Sequence record: NC_079181.1
From: Escherichia phage vB_EcoP_Bp7
Length of the DNA: 52,615 nt
Strand: one strand, 5' to 3'
A program made the translations under genes and the position numbers. Below are positions 1-52,550 of this stretch, piece by piece; within the stretch, counting starts at the first letter, position 1; every line of letters starts with the position of its first letter. Under the pieces are notes generated by a model that saw only the letters and a list, made by a program, of their open reading frames with translations, was not told the origin of the DNA and did not search any database.

Positions 1-1941
1 ATGACTACTATCACCACTCAAACTATCAAATCCGTTGTTCCTGCTATCACTGCTCTGGTATATCGTGCCAAAGAGAAACAGAACTATATGCAGCCTCAGA
101 CTTGTGCTATTGCTGCCTTAGCCATCTTCAAGATGATGACGTCTTTCACTCGTGATGACGTTGTTCCTGCCATCGCGATGGTTGAGCTGGCTTCTGCTTC
201 TATTGCTGATGCCAACCGTTATAACAACGATTTGAAAGCAATGCACTATGTTGACCCAGCTATCAACCTGATTGGTTTGGCTAAGCACTTTGGCTTCATC
301 ACCATGAACGAAGACAAGTCATTCCAACAAACTGATACATGGGTTGAACTGGTTACAACCAAAGACACAGCAGTGCCATTCACTGAGCGTGTTACATCTG
401 AATCTCGTCGCAAGCCTTTCGTTAAAGGTGGCAAAGTTAAGCCATCCAAAACTCTGAAAGCTGCAATCGAATTCCTGCAAGATACTGAGTACCATGTGGA
501 GACTGAGATGGTTCGCATCATCCAGTCCATGCTTGAACAACGTACCTACGGTGGTTTGCAGATGCCAGAAGCAATCCAGACTGAACTCCATGTTTGGAAC
601 AATGCTGTAGCAATGATGAATCAGGACACACTGTATTCTGATTACTTTGCTGATAACCGTGGTCGTCTGTATCACGTAGCATGTGCTGGTCCTAACCCAC
701 AATCATCTGACTTTGCTCGTTGCTTGTATTCTCACAATGTTGAGAACATCGTTAAGAAGTTTAACGAAGATGGTTCTACTACCATTGCATACAACATGTT
801 CATGGCAGAGCTGGAAGATATTTCTGGTGGTGAATGGTGCAGTGCTAAGCGTTTAACTTATGTTGCTCAGAATCCAGCTGGTTCACTTGCTCGCATGATG
901 AACATGCCTAAAGCTGAACGTCCTTCTAAGCCATTCACTTATGTTCGTCTGGCTCTGGATTGGTTCAAGTTTGAGACTACAGGTGAGTGCGATTCTCGTG
1001 TAGGCTTTGGCTTAGATGCTAAATGTTCTGGTACTCAATATCTGGCATTCATTGCTGGTAACATGGAAATGGCTCGTGCAACAGGTCTGGTTGATTCTGA
1101 GACTAAAGCATCTGACCCATACCAGTTGAGTCTTCGTGAACTGTTGAAGCTGCTGGACAAGTCTTCAATGAAGCCATCTCCTGAAATCATGGATGAATTC
1201 TTGAATCCGAAAGCTGGTCGTAAGTTTATCAAAACTCCGTACATGGCTATCCAATACGGTGGTGGTAAAGCTGCACTAACTGGTTCATCTGACTTCATCA
1301 GCTACATGACAGAAGCACTCCAGATTCCTATGGAGAAAGCAGAAGCATTTGCTGAACTGTGTGTGGAAGCAATCCATAACGCATTGGGTGCTAAGATTAA
1401 CATGTTCATTGAGAAAGCTGCTGAAGCTGCATACAACCGTTGTGTTGAACTTGGTAAAGAGTACATCACATATCGTCACACTGATGGTCAGGTTGTAATG
1501 AAGCCTTGCTTCCCATCTCGTGAAATCTGTGAGGCATTCAGCATTCGTGTTGATAGTCAAACTCGTGTTATCTTTGGTCAGATTCAGGAGAATAAGCCTT
1601 GGACCATTCGTGAATCCAATCCAACTAAAGAAGAATTCAAGCGTACTTTCGTTGTTAACTACATTCAGGGCATTGATGCACTTGTTGCTCGTACTGTTGC
1701 AGTTAAAGCTAAAGAAGCTGGTCTTCGTGGCTTCACTTCAATCCATGATTGTTTCCGTTGCTGTTTGGCAGACGCTCCACGTATGATGGAAGTTATTCGT
1801 GCAGCATATGTTGAAATCTTCGTAACCAACAATCAGTTCGAGAATCTGTCTAAGCAACTCGGTGGCATTCAGATGTATCATGAGAACATCGTAACTGAAG
1901 AGCTTCTGATGAGCGAACACGCTTACTACTTCTGTCAATAA
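1..1941 (+). CDS. T7-like single-subunit DNA-dependent RNA polymerase, compact (646 aa)
   Basis: Palm motifs in translation: motif A GFGLDAKCSGTQYLAF, motif B RKFIKTPYMAIQYGGGK, motif C SIHDCF. ATG at base 1; a GGAG lies 8 nt upstream across the window junction (52604-52607) if the sequence is circularly contiguous. Confidence 0.9.
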   Translation: MTTITTQTIKSVVPAITALVYRAKEKQNYMQPQTCAIAALAIFKMMTSFTRDDVVPAIAMVELASASIADANRYNNDLKAMHYVDPAINLIGLAKHFGFITMNEDKSFQQTDTWVELVTTKDTAVPFTERVTSESRRKPFVKGGKVKPSKTLKAAIEFLQDTEYHVETEMVRIIQSMLEQRTYGGLQMPEAIQTELHVWNNAVAMMNQDTLYSDYFADNRGRLYHVACAGPNPQSSDFARCLYSHNVENIVKKFNEDGSTTIAYNMFMAELEDISGGEWCSAKRLTYVAQNPAGSLARMMNMPKAERPSKPFTYVRLALDWFKFETTGECDSRVGFGLDAKCSGTQYLAFIAGNMEMARATGLVDSETKASDPYQLSLRELLKLLDKSSMKPSPEIMDEFLNPKAGRKFIKTPYMAIQYGGGKAALTGSSDFISYMTEALQIPMEKAEAFAELCVEAIHNALGAKINMFIEKAAEAAYNRCVELGKEYITYRHTDGQVVMKPCFPSREICEAFSIRVDSQTRVIFGQIQENKPWTIRESNPTKEEFKRTFVVNYIQGIDALVARTVAVKAKEAGLRGFTSIHDCFRCCLADAPRMMEVIRAAYVEIFVTNNQFENLSKQLGGIQMYHENIVTEELLMSEHAYYFCQ

Positions 1942-1990
1942 TCAGTAACACTAATTGGGTCAAGGATGACCACAAACTTGGAGACTTATA

Positions 1991-2191
1991 ATGAATACCA
2001 TGCAAATCAATCAAATCGAAAACTGTTTCAATCCTCATCACACCTGTGACATGAGCAACTTATCTCGTCCTACAGTGGAGGAGACTAAAGACTTCTTAGA
2101 ATTGTTAGCAGAATATAAGCAAGAATCGCATGTATTATTGCACGCATATTTGCACAATTCTGGATACTTTGATACAGAGATACCGTTCTGA
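1991..2191 (+). CDS. hypothetical protein (66 aa)
   Basis: ORF with GGAG 7 nt upstream; its initiation region cttggagacttataATG nearly repeats the one at the RNAP junction. Confidence 0.5.
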   Translation: MNTMQINQIENCFNPHHTCDMSNLSRPTVEETKDFLELLAEYKQESHVLLHAYLHNSGYFDTEIPF

Positions 2192-2196
2192 TACTT

Positions 2197-2222
2197 GGGA
2201 GCTTCGGCTCCCTTTTCTTATT
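2197..2222 (+). terminator. intrinsic terminator after the RNAP operon
   Basis: GGGAGC-TTCG-GCTCCC hairpin followed by TTTTCTTATTT. Confidence 0.8.
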
Positions 2223-2266
2223 TCAATTAATTTAAGAGCTGTCTTCAATATCGTCACACAACTCTT

Positions 2267-2285
2267 ACATTAGTTGGATGTGAAG
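2267..2285 (+). promoter_or_regulatory. phage promoter-like motif P1 (acattagttggatgtgaag)
   Basis: Member of a conserved motif family seen at 10 sites; no sigma70 -10/-35 pattern. Confidence 0.55.
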
Positions 2286-2299
2286 TAAAAGAATACGGA

Positions 2300-3135
2300 G
2301 AAATATTCCGCATGTCATGTTGAATCATTCTAGAAACATTCAGCATGTCAGCTTTGAGTTACAGTGTTGTAATGATGTGGCAATCATTGAACTCCCTAGG
2401 TAGGCCACCTACAGTTCCAGCAACCATGACTTAGAGTAGGAATATCTATCCGAAACTTGTACTTCACCTATAGCATGTTCAATTGCGACAATATTGCTCC
2501 ATCTCCTATTATAAAGGCCCACCCACAAGCCGGGAGATAACTTTGGTAATATTGGAACTTTTGGACATGCTTCTTTCTTTCTACAAGAATTCGAAAGAAG
2601 AGAAGAAGTCGGACAAAGCATCTCGTTTGCACGCAGAAGCCGCCCCGATTTTGAGCAACAAATATTGTGACAATTGCGTCGCAGTATGGCATGTAAATAT
2701 TGCTACAAATTGGCATGTTGGAATGTGGCAGAATTGTTAGAGGACTAATCACCTCGAAGATACAATCGTCTACCAATCTGGCATGTTAATTTTGTAACAG
2801 TATTTGTGCCAATTTCGCATGTAGTATTTAACCCAATATTCTTGCAACCCGCATGAATACTGGCTTCCAGCCAAGCGAAGGCTTTATCATCGCATGTAAT
2901 ATTGTGACAATATTGGGATAAAACCCTTTATTTAAATCATTTAGTTTATTAATTAAATGGTCGGTTTTCTGTACATAGGTATTCAGCTGTTTGTGCCAAA
3001 TACAAACAAGTTGGCTGCTTCTACAGAACTCCAGTGCTATAAATGTTCGTGCCAATCTGCTGCAATTTATCTCATTTGGCGGGGTAATATTGTATTAGAT
3101 TGGCATGTCATTCTTTCGATTAGTTGCATGTGAAT
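2300..3135. repeat. non-coding array of degenerate repeats (core GCATGT about 12 times, palindrome CAATATTG about 5 times) with an AT-rich stretch
   Basis: Read directly, e.g. tggcatgtaaat, tggcatgttgg, tggcatgttaat, tcgcatgtagta, tcgcatgtaat, tggcatgtcatt, ttgcatgtgaat; AT-rich 2925-2990; no credible ORF. Confidence 0.6.
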
Positions 3136-3316
3136 AAGACCAAATCTCTGTAAATTCTGTGACAGATTTTAGAGAGATTATGTCTCCAAGCTAATCATTG
3201 CAGTTCTTCGGCACTTGCTGTGTCACATACTCCCTACAACTTTAAGGTGGATTGAGGTAAGACAAGACCTCCACAATCGTTCTGTAGGGAGTTTTCTTTT
3301 AACTTAGGAGAATAAA

Positions 3317-3535
3317 ATGACTCGTTTTAAAGATTTGGAAGATGGTGCAATCTTCTTTACGCGTGGTGGAGAACATCTGCAAAAAGTTCTGGAAGATGAC
3401 GTTAATGTAAATGCCGTATTCGTTGGTGATTCTAACATTGGTGTTTTATTAAATGACAATGAGAGAACTTTTACCGAGGAGGAGTTTAAAGAAATCTCAG
3501 CCTCTGATTTAGTTCAAGAGCCAATTGAAGTTTAA
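3317..3535 (+). CDS. hypothetical protein (72 aa)
   Basis: ORF with AGGAG 6 nt upstream. Confidence 0.55.
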   Translation: MTRFKDLEDGAIFFTRGGEHLQKVLEDDVNVNAVFVGDSNIGVLLNDNERTFTEEEFKEISASDLVQEPIEV

Positions 3536-11589: not shown

Positions 11590-11660
11590 CTTTGTAACTA
11601 GGTAGTCCGTCTGGTACCAGGGCGTGTGAGAACGTTCGATTCGTTCTACAAAGTTCTTTT
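11590..11660 (+). ncRNA. promoter-proximal structured RNA candidate with a tRNA T-arm-like hairpin
   Basis: CTTTGTA (11590-11596) pairs with TACAAAG (11647-11653); inner GAACG-TTCGATT-CGTTC hairpin and palindrome CTGGTACCAG; followed by TTCTTTTCG. Confidence 0.35.
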
Positions 11661-12204
11661 CGATGGAATGTTTCCATCAAATACATTTATCTTTTAACAT
11701 AGGCCAAAGGGCCGGAATACTTCTTCGCAGAAAGCTGTTCACTTGTTATAGCGATGTATTGGGATGAATTGGTACTAAATAAGCAAGCTGTTAGGGCTGA
11801 ATAATTAGAGGGTTATGCCTCATGCTTATGTTAGTCATTCGAAAATAGGTTTGTGCCACAAGCTGCTGGTGCTCTGAGGAAGTCGGACAAACAGGGCTTA
11901 GAGTGGCATAATCCGCACAAAACCGCGCCACCAGCTATGCCAAAGCGGGTGGATTGGGTGAATGTATTGGGAAGGGTTGCAAAGCCTCTGTGACACGCCT
12001 GAGCCGCAAGGCGACGACACTCATGTGATTAGCGTATCGCACCCTAACGGGAGTAACCCTTCGCCAATGCAGTTATCCAGAATTGACACAAACGGTAGGC
12101 AGTGGCCCGATTTTCGGCCTTCCTGCGCTACCCTGTGGCCTGTTCCTGGGCCAAAAGATGAGAAGAGAAGTCACAAACACTGAATCGAAAATTGGAGAGT
12201 TCCT

Positions 12205-13950: not shown

Positions 13951-14319
13951 GTTGCCGATGGCAGACTTGAGAGACTAAGCTAAATCGATCTGGCATGCAC
14001 TGGAAGTTTTCCGGTGCTGCCTTGAACCCATTCCAGAGTGAGTGGGCTTCAATTTGTACATAATCCAAACACCATTGCATGAGCCTTCGACGGGAGGCAA
14101 TGTTGGGAAATTTGTTGTGTACAAATTGAAGTAGTTTTCTGAGTCTTACGACGGGCCTAAACTGCCTGAAGTTATTGCGACTGTTTTATTCATTTAAAAT
14201 AAATGCAAATGATTCTGAAATGCGAGTTGCGGCTTAATTAAATTTAAGTCTTCTCCGTGGTCTTCCAATCCCACGTAACCAAATTTGGCGCATTGTGGCT
14301 CCGAGATGTGATTAATAAA

Positions 14320-14527
14320 TCGGAGCAATAATTAATTTGTATTCTGCGATGCAATGCAGGCTTAAGTCCCTCAGTGCGCGTGGGGATGTGACAGAGTACA
14401 AACTTAATTATTAATTTGTATTCTGGTGTTGTTCGCCAAGATTGGTGCACTCATGATTGGTAGTGTTGGAGAGCGCGGAGCCTAAAATATTATCTGGCAT
14501 CTCCTACCAGAGTACAAACTTAATTAT
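14320..14527. repeat. cluster of direct and inverted repeats in a non-coding island
   Basis: cagagtacaaacttaatta occurs twice (around 14390 and 14505); aattaatttgtattctg occurs twice; together they form an imperfect palindrome at 14393-14426. Confidence 0.55.
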
Positions 14528-14968
14528 GCAGTTGGATATTTCTAGAGGACGGACGAGCACACTGGAATGTCTTCAATTGGTTTAGTGTGAGAAGCTATGC
14601 CAATATGAAACGTAACTCCTTGGGGAAGTGCTCCTCTGGATTTCCCTCCACACAGGAATCTCAAGCCTGTGGCAGCGACTTCGAAGCTGCACTGCGTAAC
14701 CTAAATTCACCCTAAAGTGAGTTGCCCTGAGTATGGAAATAAACTGCTCATAACCGATGGTATCTACAAAGGTAGATTAAATCAGGTTGCCTGTTGGTAC
14801 TTGGGTTCAACACCTGCTTGCACTCGCAAAGTAGTGCCTCGTACCTGAGATGAAGTGAGTCGGGACCATCAATCCCACGTTATGTCAAAACGCAGTAGGC
14901 GGCTCACAGATTCTACAAGCCTCGCAGTTCGGGAAAACCTGCGTTATCAAAACCCCCTCTTATTCTTT

Positions 14969-15061
14969 GGACGAGTAGCTCAGAAGGTCTGCTCCAGAGC
15001 TTAGTCAGGTAGAGCAATCTGTTAGGCAGATGTGTCGTTGGTTCGAATCCAACCTCGTCCA
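14969..15061 (+). tRNA. atypical 93-nt tRNA-like gene (isotype unresolved, possibly Leu)
   Basis: Perfect 7-bp acceptor stem (GGACGAG / CTCGTCC) and canonical T-arm (GTTGG-TTCGAAT-CCAAC), but about 20 extra nt in the D-arm region; candidate anticodons UAG or CAG depending on the fold. Confidence 0.45.
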
Positions 15062-15093
15062 CCCACTTTAATAACCGCAATACTGGAGTCCTT

Positions 15094-15234
15094 ATGGATT
15101 TTGATGCACTTGATAATTTAGACTTCGGTGCTGCCGAAGAAGCAATTGAAGAACTTAAGAAGAAGCAGGACGAAGAAGCAATCGTTCCTGGTGAGGGCGA
15201 TAACGACTGCTCAAGTGGTGCGTGCGCCATCTAA
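15094..15234 (+). CDS. small acidic protein (46 aa)
   Basis: Hand-translated MDFDALDNLDFGAAEEAIEEL...; GGAG 6 nt upstream. Below the ORF track cutoff. Confidence 0.35.
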   Translation: MDFDALDNLDFGAAEEAIEELKKKQDEEAIVPGEGDNDCSSGACAI

Positions 15235-15242
15235 GGTGATTT

Positions 15243-15612: not shown

Positions 15613-16555
15613 GTGAACAAGACGGACGTCTATAACTTCCCACATGGCCTAGCTAGTTGGTGGTGTAAAAGACTGACCAAGGTGACGACAGCCAAAGTCG
15701 AGGGAGTGCGCGACTTTAAATAACGAGACTCTAGCAACTTGTTGCGATGATGGTGTAAGCCCATGCGTTTGGAAGCAGGACTCCAACTCAAACAAACCTG
15801 CAAGTTGCTCTGGGCATAACAATTAAAATTGCTGCCTCGCATTGAACGCGAGAAAGTTCAGGTAGTCACTTCCTAGAACAGTGGCCGGGAACACACCTAG
15901 ACAAAAGTGCTTGAGAACGTTAGCTCTGTCTTGCCAGCATTAATGGCACGTTGGCCGCGTAAAGGCCACAGCGTCTGACCAACGTATCGGTCGCCAAATT
16001 CAATGGATTCGTAGAGTTAATTAAACCTGCACGATGGGATGGGGATGTAGCATCCGAGGCCGACTGTGTAATTGTGAACTTCGCGTTCACCGAATCCGCC
16101 AAATCCATGGGCTAGTGCAAATGTCAGTCACTAGAAGATGTGTTGCAAAACGTCTTCCATGATGTGCAAAGTGTCAGTCACGTGCCCGCCACTTTACCTC
16201 CAACAGTTATGCCTCTGTTCAAAAGGCTCAAGAGAGCGTCTGGCATACCGTAGCGATACGGCTTAGTTGCGCTGATTGTGTTGTGCAGAAAGAAAGTTCA
16301 GGCTTTCGTTTGGGTTACTCCTCATCCCGAAGTTAGCTGGATTCAAAATCCAGACTATGTTCCTATACACATGAAATATGCAAGTCGAGGGTTCTTAATG
16401 TTCAAACATGATGCGAGCATTAAGCGGGTTTATACTTTTCCCCGATGGTCCCCATAAACAAGGCTGATTCACTTGGGCGGTTCGAATCAAATTTAATAAG
16501 TGTTTTGTAACAGTTCACGTCAGGACACTTACTTAAATTTTAACTGGAGAGAAAC

Positions 16556-51950: not shown

Positions 51951-52092
51951 CGATTATATGTGAGAAGAGATTCGATGCGTTAGCGTCGTTTCTCTTTGAG
52001 CTAGAATAAGACAAGTAAATTAAATATTTATTTATTCCCAATATTGCTACAATATTAAGAGTAGTATTAGGAATGCGTAAAGTTAAATGGTA

Positions 52093-52149
52093 CATGGTCG
52101 GTCAACTGTATCTGGATAGTAATTCGTTCATGGTCGGTCAGCTGTATCT
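52093..52149. repeat. two 21-bp direct repeats (catggtcggtcaRctgtatct)
   Basis: Copies at 52093-52113 and 52129-52149. Confidence 0.7.
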
Positions 52150-52208
52150 CCTTCGGAGAAGTTATCTCGCCGAAATTTGTTCGAATGGAAAACCGACTAT
52201 TAAATAAA

Positions 52209-52233
52209 TTTTTTTTTTTTTTTTTTTTTTTTT
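52209..52233. repeat. 25-nt poly(T) homopolymer
   Basis: Uninterrupted T run preceded by TAAATAAA. Confidence 0.9.
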
Positions 52234-52330
52234 CAATATTGCTACAGAATTAATGAGACTCAAATTGTTTCAATATTATCGAGACTCGAATTGTTACGAT
52301 ATTAATGAGACTAGAATTGTGGCAATTGCT
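52234..52330. repeat. three tandem degenerate ~30-bp repeats (core atattaNNgagactNNaattgt)
   Basis: attaatgagactcaaattgtt / attatcgagactcgaattgtt / attaatgagactagaattgtg. Confidence 0.65.
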
Positions 52331-52531
52331 CACTTCGCTCGCTTTATATTATAATTTTATTTTTGGGCCAGCGGGGAGGGGAAGCCCAACGTCCTATCGG
52401 ACTTAAAATACGGTCCCTACTCCAACTTTTTCCTACAGCCTATCGGCTTTCAAACAACACCAAGTTAGGCGCTTCGCTTATGGGTCAAGGTCAAAGTCTC
52501 CGTGCTGTTGTAACAATGGCACAGGTTTGTG

Positions 52532-52550
52532 ATATTAGTTGGACGTGAAT
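52532..52550 (+). promoter_or_regulatory. phage promoter-like motif P8 (atattagttggacgtgaat), upstream of the RNAP gene if circular
   Basis: Conserved motif about 65 bp before the window end; RNAP ATG is at base 1. Confidence 0.5.

Follow-up and report, generated by a model that had tools for sequence, protein, structure and literature searches.

In phage T7, transcription by the phage RNA polymerase (RNAP) and its pausing at the concatemer junction (CJ) are required for DNA maturation. At this junction the promoters phiOL and phiOR reportedly lie beside the repeat together with the SRL and SRR arrays, and the polymerase is said to pause at the CJ. Phage phi29, in which a unit-length linear genome is packaged, has a structured RNA near its genome end, the pRNA, which contains a three-way junction. 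In phage T5 the so-called "injection stop signal" is an untranslated region that lies wholly inside the 10-kb left repeat and is defined by eight DnaA boxes (10.1101/866236). GOLLD and ROOL are large ornate non-coding RNAs of phages and prophages (PMC12286853), and abundant long non-coding RNAs (lncRNAs) are described for phage K (PMC9241854). Chaseviridae genomes are linear and carry terminal repeats of about 3 kb as a family trait, and the promoters of the family are "not yet identified" (ICTV profile). Here we analyze a gene-free region of 1.1 kb (positions 2192-3316) of the Escherichia phage vB_EcoP_Bp7 (Bp7; record NC_079181.1); the window is the whole 52,615-nt stretch of DNA that was analyzed. 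Bp7 is a Chaseviridae (phiEcoM-GJ1-like) E. coli myophage, and its relatives belong mostly to the genus Carltongylesvirus. The region is quite probably the untranslated junction between the left direct terminal repeat (DTR) and unique DNA, and forms a large structured nucleic acid when the + strand is read.

The region is genuinely non-coding. A sequence-only reading of the window had described it as a non-coding array of 1.1 kb, and this was borne out: from the terminator upstream to the ATG of the first early gene at 3317, no open reading frame (ORF) is conserved in 14 aligned phages, and hidden small genes, which could have explained the region otherwise, are likewise not conserved in this alignment. 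Thirteen ORFs of 27-102 amino acids (aa) can be read in the region. None of them stays open across the 14 phages, with the exception of a 29-aa ORF with a TTG start in the invariant block, which is broken in phage 4HA13. Curated annotations (e.g., of GJ1 and SA91KD) put no gene here, and automatic annotations propose mutually inconsistent ORFs. Annotators should be warned that automated callers place spurious ORFs in this region, as in the records of PYps23T, Ecp_YSF, JL1 and Bp10. A search for tRNAs returned none.

Three folded domains were recognized on the + strand. For domain I, 10 sequences of at least seven lineages were folded with RNAalifold and their pairs counted, with shuffles (n = 500) and slid-partner controls; for domain III we used 10 sequences from six lineages, and for the core hairpin of domain II 11 sequences. 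Domain I (2296-2452) is closed by the helices CGGA/UCCG and UUCC/GGAA and encloses a hairpin formed by the GCATGT copies at 2310 and 2343, as well as a three-way junction (2351-2437). It comprises 48 pairs with 97.2% of cells paired. Nineteen of these pairs have changed on both sides, compared to 9.8 ± 1.8 in the shuffles; none of the 500 shuffles was as good on any of five measures, and the slid-partner controls gave 2-4. The three-way junction alone has double changes in 11 of 28 pairs, and the minimum free energy (MFE) fold of the Bp7 sequence itself yields the same junction. Domain II (2472-2571), recognized as inverted repeat I3 and by MFE, has a long-range helix between AGCATGT at 2472 and ACATGCT at 2565-2571 (GCATGT 2473 with ACATGC 2565), whose covariation is a by-eye observation only. 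This helix encloses a near-invariant core hairpin at 2501-2538 (UAUUAUAAAGGCCCACCCACAAGCCGGGA), in which two stem positions occur with five pair types each and none is broken among the 11 sequences.

Domain III (2643-2918) was obtained from an RNAalifold-type consensus, pair counts and MFE. Its closing helix joins AAATATTGTGACAAT (~2657-2672) with ATTGTGACAATATT (~2899-2915), GCATGT 2689 pairs with GCATGT 2817, and the apical hairpin is GAGG...CCUC. The best-supported part is the central long hairpin (~2710-2790), in which covarying flanks enclose the pairing of GCATGT 2713 with GCATGT 2781. Here, 95.4% of cells in 48 pairs are paired, and 12 pairs have changed on both sides versus 6.5 ± 1.3 in the shuffles, with 0 of 500 shuffles as good and slid controls of 0-4. 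The consensus fold of domain III has -41.9 kcal/mol on the + strand and -29.3 on the - strand, compared to -11.5 ± 2.9 for column shuffles. MFE z-scores of the domain were -4.27 on the + and -2.19 on the - strand, and another single-sequence z-score for the + strand was -4.1. A pairing of the AATATTG boxes at 2695 and 2787 was seen with eight sequences and lost when Loessnervirus was added, and we do not claim it. As a side observation, the invariant AUCACCUC (2752-2760), which makes up the loop of domain III's apical hairpin together with its 3' arm, pairs in cis with the upstream GAGG; it matches the 3' end of 16S rRNA (anti-Shine-Dalgarno, GAUCACCUCC), and the match may be due to chance.

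The pairs reveal which strand is folded. Domain I has 42 G·U and no A·C cells and domain III 82 G·U and seven A·C cells, and since both domains together have 124 G·U versus seven A·C cells, the G·U pairs fit the + strand only. The repeated word of the region behaves accordingly. GCAUGU can pair with GCAUGU (G·U, C-G, A-U, U-A, G-C, U·G), and its complement ACAUGC cannot self-pair. This self-pairing via G·U works only on the + strand, which explains why 10 of 11 GCATGT copies lie on one strand. The sequence-only reading had put the number of degenerate copies at about 12, which agrees with 11 exact copies in 2290-3310 (10 on the + strand, one on the - strand) plus one GCATGA. With a density of 0.37 per kb outside, the region is enriched 30-fold (binomial P 6e-12); first-order Markov simulations of the region gave a mean of 0.44 copies and a maximum of four, and the 30 copies in the whole window are fewer than in shuffles (39.7). 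The palindrome for which about five copies had been reported was overcounted, as exact CAATATTG is found only twice in the region (2489 and 2908). Its presence in the terminal region was correctly seen, at 52039 and 52234, which makes four exact copies in the window. The enriched word is the looser AATATTG, with 13 + strand copies in the genome, seven of them in 2285-3200 and two in 52000-52402. Several of these "repeats" are best read as helix strands, and the AATATTG words as halves of A/U-rich helices or palindromes.

The structured block is strongly conserved. The 1.5 kb around the region matched 65 phage records, all of them phiEcoM-GJ1 relatives, with the best matches in Bp10 (93%), JL1 (91%) and SKA49 (97%, part only). 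Block 2640-2925 hardly varies among 14 Escherichia and Yersinia phages, and indels of the relatives are confined to a few sites between the domains (2305, ~2468, 2615-2640 and 3228). Identity to Sabourvirus 4HA13 is 74% for domain III and 75% for the RNAP gene, whereas the neighboring early genes are, at 34%, unrelated. The layout is kept in Carltongylesvirus, Sabourvirus (4HA13), Suwonvirus (PM1), Faunusvirus, Loessnervirus, Aeromonas phage phiA050 and two uncultivated contigs. Its order is terminator, the promoter-like site P1, structured block, near-invariant UAUUAUAAAGGCCCACCCACAAGCCGGGA hairpin, purine tract and repeat end, followed by the GCATGT/AATATTG block, a T-rich tract, the ATGGTCGG box and a second promoter-like site, P2. 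The domain III core had no match in 185,579 bacterial and archaeal species genomes, and scans of viral contigs recovered the known isolates plus two uncultivated contigs and nothing else. Of 120 loci retrieved from metagenomes with a loose three-way-junction pattern, all are chance matches except L082 and L153; locus L154 is a bacterial GTPase gene. A more specific search pattern for the element is TATTATNAAGGCCC-N3-CACAAGCCGGGA. In Rfam, an E-value scan of 1900-3400 had a best E-value of 0.46, with unrelated eukaryotic families far below their gathering scores, and a gathering-threshold scan of the whole window gave no matches, GOLLD and ROOL included. The 4,227 families scanned, which presumably include a pRNA family, gave no pRNA match.

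By homology, the end of the terminal repeat is predicted to fall within this structured region, at about 2610, which the sequence-only reading had missed. Five related records from four genera, with DTRs of ~2.3-3.2 kb, all place the right end at 2605-2614 of Bp7, at GAAGAAG/TC/GGAC/AAAG (slashes separate the alternative cut positions), written with its left context as ...GAAGAGAAGAAG/TC/GGAC/AAAG. PhageTerm repeats are annotated in Mangalitsa (1-3234) and 4HA13 (1-3120), the JL1 record has two identical 2995-bp copies that end in ...GAAGAAGTC, the PM1 record has two identical 2665-bp copies that end in ...GAGAGTC, and the Faunus record was opened at the corresponding place (...GTTAG/AGTCGGG). 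The left ends of Mangalitsa, 4HA13, JL1 and PM1 align to 52398-52403 (...CCTATCGGAC/TTAAAATACGG). Because the ends of the relatives align to these two places, a repeat of about 2.8 kb (52403 to ~2610) is predicted for Bp7. Besides the RNAP gene, a small ORF and the terminator, the predicted repeat would take in P1 and 325 nt at the start of the array. With the RNAP gene inside it, virion DNA would consequently carry two RNAP copies. The coordinate origin of the record, in which position 1 is the ATG of the RNAP gene, is thus not the physical genome end. The word TCGGAC is present at both repeat ends, yet it cannot be the whole end signal because it occurs 16 times in the genome. Just before the repeat end a pyrimidine/purine hairpin, CTTCTTTCTTTC...GAAAGAAGAGAAG (2572-2607, + strand), was found by sequence, MFE and alignment. 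All genera have a purine-rich tract at this place, but 4HA13 and PM1 lack the hairpin as such and keep purine richness alone. The predicted repeat end at 2605-2614 lies in the linker between domains II and III. The right-end copy would therefore encode P1 and domains I-II only, and the left copy or a concatemer junction would encode all three domains.

Directly upstream of domain I lies P1, a putative phage-RNAP promoter (ATTAGTTGGATGTGAA, 2269-2284, + strand). The promoter proposed by the sequence-only reading stands insofar as it matches the one proposed for phiEcoM-GJ1 and annotated as "phage promoter 1" in GJ1 and SA91KD; as a consensus match, it is putative. P1 is invariant across 14 phages. 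By motif match, P2 (ATTAGTTGCATGTGAA, 3119-3134, + strand) is a second putative phage-RNAP promoter, and a third promoter-like site is located at 52534-52549 (+ strand), 131 nt inside the left repeat end. The 16-mer ATTAGTTGSATGTGAA has 11 matches at three or fewer mismatches, all on the + strand, compared to 1.5 expected. We rejected the idea that the GCATGT copies are degenerate phage promoters, because the conserved promoter core is ATTAGTTGG and P2 alone among the promoter-like sites contains GCATGT.

On balance, a structured RNA at the repeat junction is the best explanation overall, as far as sequence can tell. We infer that it is most probably an RNA of about 650 nt that would be started by the phage RNAP at P1 (~2283), fold into three domains and possibly end in the U-rich tract at ~2920-2950; alternatively, it may be a structured leader that runs on to the first early gene at 3317. 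The promoter-like site just upstream and in sense orientation supports this reading. Such an RNA might act in cis when the genome ends are formed. The junction would be marked or exposed as the polymerase transcribes from P1 past the end of the repeat, with contributions from the folded RNA and from the purine-rich stretch that precedes this end; cutting and duplication of the repeat by the terminase and the replication machinery would follow. That the end and the structure are found together, and that both flanks have words in common (AATATTG palindromes, ATGGTCGG and TCGGAC), favors, and does not prove, this link. By analogy to T7 we regard the cis role as a tentative proposal that is more likely wrong than right; a free-standing regulatory or decoy RNA, or a leader that stabilizes the early operon, is about as likely.

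Several points weigh against a structured RNA at a junction near 2610. The repeat of PYps23T, the one experimentally mapped relative, was found to be 2339 bp by restriction digests, ligation-PCR (polymerase chain reaction) and primer walking, and its right end lies inside P1 (~2278) and not at 2610. Both PYps23T ends lie exactly inside two promoter-like motifs, ATTAGTTGGA/YGTGAA (52534-52549 and 2269-2284 here), and the ends in the other five records are 131 nt upstream and ~330 nt downstream of them. One possible explanation is a PCR artefact across homology, since the junction halves share 10-16 nt; the other is a real alternative end. Concerning the structure, the covariation rests on 9-11 related sequences, and the slid-partner control is inflated because the alignments used for it had also supplied the structures. 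Two helices, the one that closes domain III and 2689:2817, are invariant and thus offer no covariation evidence. Only some GCATGT copies lie in helices with covarying flanks, and those at 2851, 2892, 3103 and 3126 are unexplained by the structure. Furthermore, G·T wobbles also form in single-stranded DNA (ssDNA), P1 and P2 are consensus matches only, and the link to DNA maturation is drawn by analogy only. The palindromes of AATATTG type, the Box C copies and the 26-nt repeats of the left flank resemble DNA sites for proteins and are not explained by an RNA. In the literature searched we found no Chaseviridae transcript data and nothing on this region or on non-coding RNA of the family; the papers on ST32, PP101 and 4HA13 do not discuss the region.

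The left flank just mentioned (52039-52402, + strand), upstream of the left repeat end at 52403, shares words with the region. It has 17-bp palindromes of AATATTG type at 52039, 52234, 52262, 52290 and 52317, a T25 homopolymer (52209-52233), and TCGGAC at 52397-52402. In addition, it contains 3.2 copies of a 26-nt tandem repeat (52238-52320), each unit with a ATTGNNNCAAT palindrome, and two direct repeats of ~34 nt that carry ATGGTCGGTCARCTGTATCT (the Box C copies at 52094 and 52128). This layout is also found in PM1 and PYps23T; in PM1 the non-palindromic half of the tandem-repeat unit is changed (GAGACT to CGGCTC) and the layout kept. A terminator (51973-51988) and, immediately ahead of the end, a GC-rich hairpin are further parts of the gene-free flank (51951-52402 as a whole), which may be a pac site or an origin.

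These elements are the core of the rival explanation that survives best, in which the region is an array of duplex-DNA sites. The 17-bp AATATTGTnACAATATT palindromes, GCATGT and Box C would be bound by a regulator or by the small terminase (TerS), and the sites on both outer repeat flanks would control early transcription or join the repeat boundaries for cutting; duplex AATATTGTGACAATATT and the 26-nt repeats of the left flank are the candidate protein-bound sites. The arrays may be likened to cosB, pacL/pacR and the SRL/SRR arrays of T7. AATATTG is concentrated in the two flanks (9 of 13 + strand copies), and all three ATGGTCGG copies are there. The dyad-symmetric palindromes of AATATTGTnACAATATT type are likewise concentrated in both repeat flanks and kept across genera, and the tandem repeat has one palindrome per unit. 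Half-sites TTG-N3-CAA are kept in all genera and the other half of the unit varies by lineage, as iteron or TerS sites do, and TCGGAC marks both repeat ends. However, the frequency of TCGGAC in the genome speaks against a specific site, the one-strand bias of GCATGT and its invariant G·U ends are unexpected for duplex sites, and conservation of protein sites does not yield distant compensatory changes. Pfam found no DNA-binding domain in 10 neighboring early proteins and no small terminase is annotated, in a phage whose proteins are mostly unannotated. As an account of the region, protein-bound duplex sites are doubtful, though they are plausible for the 17-bp palindromes and the 26-nt repeats and may coexist with a structured RNA, as the same DNA may serve both.

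We consider it unlikely that the region is a replication origin, in which transcripts from P1 or P2 would prime synthesis or open the AT-rich stretch at 2925-2990, as in the T7 primary origin. In variants of this idea the repeated boxes would be initiator iterons, or the structured P1 transcript a pre-primer similar to RNA II of ColE1. The position downstream of the RNAP gene, between two phage promoter-like sites, would fit an origin, and rare words are common to the region and to the second AT-rich, repeat-bearing region before the left repeat end; T7 has secondary origins near phiOL and phiOR, with which the two flanks can be compared. Since the replisome is T7-like without a recognizable initiator, transcription-primed initiation is plausible. 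The tract is strongly AT-rich, as the sequence-only reading had noted: 2925-2990 has a GC content of 27.3% compared to 44.2% for the genome and ranks in the lowest 0.56% of 66-nt windows. In the primary origin of T7, however, the AT-rich region abuts promoters, whereas here the tract (~2925) is 640 nt away from the end of P1 (2284) and upstream of P2 (3119), and the positional analogy drawn before does not hold in this respect. There is no enrichment of DnaA boxes (one TTWTNCACA in the region and four in the genome versus 8.1 expected), box spacing is irregular, unlike iterons, and GC skew shows nothing apart from the point where coding begins. Neither annotation nor Pfam searches of the 10 neighboring early proteins revealed an initiator or a DNA-binding domain. 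The view that the repeats are origin iterons or operators found no specific support, as covarying or conserved + strand helices account for several GCATGT copies. The tract itself (2919-2990, GC 27%) is T-rich on the + strand and contains Box C, ATGGTCGGTTTTCTGTAC (2957-2974); the genome has three copies of the Box C word ATGGTCGG, this one and those at 52094 and 52128. A T-rich tract directly 3' of domain III is also present in 4HA13, Faunus, phiA050 and pEa27, and its position after the closing helix in all genera could equally make it a 3' U-tract of the RNA and not a DNA-unwinding element.

A bolder extension of the structured RNA is distinctly improbable, namely that the P1 transcript belongs to a novel class of large phage RNAs that associate with themselves and are directly involved in genome-end formation or packaging. 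The quasi-palindromic GCAUGU and AAUAUU motifs would then permit oligomerization or pairing with nascent copies, and terminal-repeat duplication or terminase targeting would include an RNA-dependent step in a myovirus that bears a T7-type RNAP. The least probable rival, and a very unlikely one, is structure in + strand ssDNA (hairpins in strand-displacement duplication, a lagging-strand or priming site, or pauses in ejection or packaging): covariation and strand bias apply equally to such DNA, the repeat end lies between domains, and a large untranslated palindrome-rich region at the inner left-repeat end of T5 stops DNA transfer (10.1101/866236), but the invariant G·T at both ends of the GCATGT:GCATGT helices would be destabilizing in DNA, where GCATGC would be expected, a sense-oriented promoter lies immediately upstream, the multi-branch domains with conserved loops look like RNA, and the eight-DnaA-box layout of the T5 signal is absent. 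Taken together, the observation made by the sequence-only reading was partly confirmed and its interpretation partly supported; "regulatory hub" is a fair term for a non-coding, strongly selected region with promoter-like elements.

The neighborhood of the element is as follows. The gene for the single-subunit RNAP occupies 1-1941 (+ strand), as seen from the ORF list and from the RNA polymerase annotation in homologous records. The array had been placed directly after the RNAP terminator; a conserved 66-aa ORF (1991-2191, + strand), to which no function is assigned, in fact sits between the RNAP stop (1941) and the terminator. It is also annotated in Mangalitsa, 4HA13, flopper, PO103-1 and PYps23T, has 82% nucleotide identity to 4HA13, and had no match in a Pfam scan. 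Within this ORF, ATCGCATGTATTATTGCACGCATATTTGCACAA (2125-2157) shares 73% identity with the composite of GCATGT and AATATTG at 2889-2921 (repeat family D4), and the non-coding motif pair thus has a copy embedded in coding sequence. The intrinsic terminator (2197-2222, + strand), GGGAGC-TTCG-GCTCCC at 2197-2212 followed by a T-run, is also annotated in SA91KD. A sigma-70 promoter is annotated in phiEcoM-GJ1 ~260 nt upstream of the RNAP start and would fall outside the repeat. Its possible counterpart here, TTGCTC-N18-TATAAT at ~52326-52355, is unaligned and was not called by the consensus scan; if it holds, this promoter precedes only the right-end RNAP copy. A cluster of sigma-70 promoters in the region was rejected (six sites versus 5.1 expected), as were host-factor motifs (CRP, LexA, Fur, IHF, TyrR and sigma-54), which were compared by eye only and whose spacings misfit.

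Downstream of the AT-rich tract, the alignment reveals a variable segment (2991-3115, + strand) with two unrelated alleles among close relatives. For 2990-3100, Bp7 shares one allele with Bp10, JL1, SKA49 and DE15, and the other is found in GJ1, ST32, flopper, Mangalitsa and others. Both carry GCATGT (3103 here) and then a ATTGTGACAA-type box, which indicates cassette exchange with the motifs retained. After P2, inverted-repeat and alignment data show a hairpin at 3137-3185, a long hairpin with T-run at 3229-3300, a ribosome binding site (RBS) and the ATG at 3317, all on the + strand. Located between P2 and the RBS of the first early gene, the long hairpin (CTCCCTACA...TGTAGGGAG, then TTTTCTTTT) could be a site of RNase III-like processing, a terminator or an attenuator. 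Some relatives have an insertion of ~97 nt at 3228, just upstream of it, and the hairpin is absent in JL1. Other stretches of the window without a + strand ORF of at least 50 aa are 11606-11961, 13951-15242 and 15613-16277, the largest being 1.3 kb. These three stretches have no GCATGT enrichment and no Rfam match and may hold other non-coding elements. SA91KD, too, has long gene-free gaps after phage promoters (12.3-13.0 and 15.3-17.5 kb, own coordinates).

Chaseviridae are used as therapeutic and biocontrol coliphages, and their transcription signals, genome-end formation and replication start are uncharacterized. The element is a candidate for a large structured phage RNA, unusual in straddling a terminal-repeat boundary and apparently undescribed. 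If true, a structure of ~650 nt whose conservation equals that of the RNAP gene would join a small number of large structured RNAs in virulent Enterobacteria phages and be the first such RNA across a terminal-repeat boundary. Three domains, two promoters and a mapped end would be concrete targets for studying the coupling between a T7-type polymerase and DNA maturation in a phage with a long DTR.

Compared to the known systems, the locus resembles the T7 junction in that Bp7 has its own single-subunit RNAP, short-word arrays flank the repeat on both sides, and promoter-like sites lie 131 nt from the left and ~325 nt from the right end, with no gene downstream of the last promoter on mature DNA. 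Unlike the 160-bp repeat of T7, however, the Bp7 repeat would be ~2.8 kb long and contain the RNAP gene and promoters. The pause signal ATCTGTT is absent at its end, and T7 has no known conserved multi-domain structure at the junction. With the T5 region it shares a long DTR, a large untranslated inner left-repeat end with repeats, inverted repeats and palindromes, and a layout conserved in relatives. In contrast to T5, the Bp7 array extends mostly beyond the repeat and shows no enrichment of DnaA boxes, and conservation takes the form of one-strand covariation. Similar to GOLLD, ROOL and the lncRNAs of phage K, the element is several hundred nucleotides long, multi-domain, phage-borne and without an assigned function, and its self-complementary motifs could in principle mediate RNA-RNA contacts. 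It differs from GOLLD and ROOL by lacking an Rfam match or homology, by its occurrence in phages of Enterobacterales and Aeromonas, and by its position, which is not beside tRNA genes, follows a putative T7-like promoter and straddles a terminal-repeat boundary. As with the pRNA of phi29, the element lies near a genome end and includes a three-way junction, but it is far larger, and the myovirus virion and terminase system differ. If the P1 transcript were indeed self-associating, it would stand functionally between the pRNA of phi29 and the RNAP/CJ mechanism of T7.

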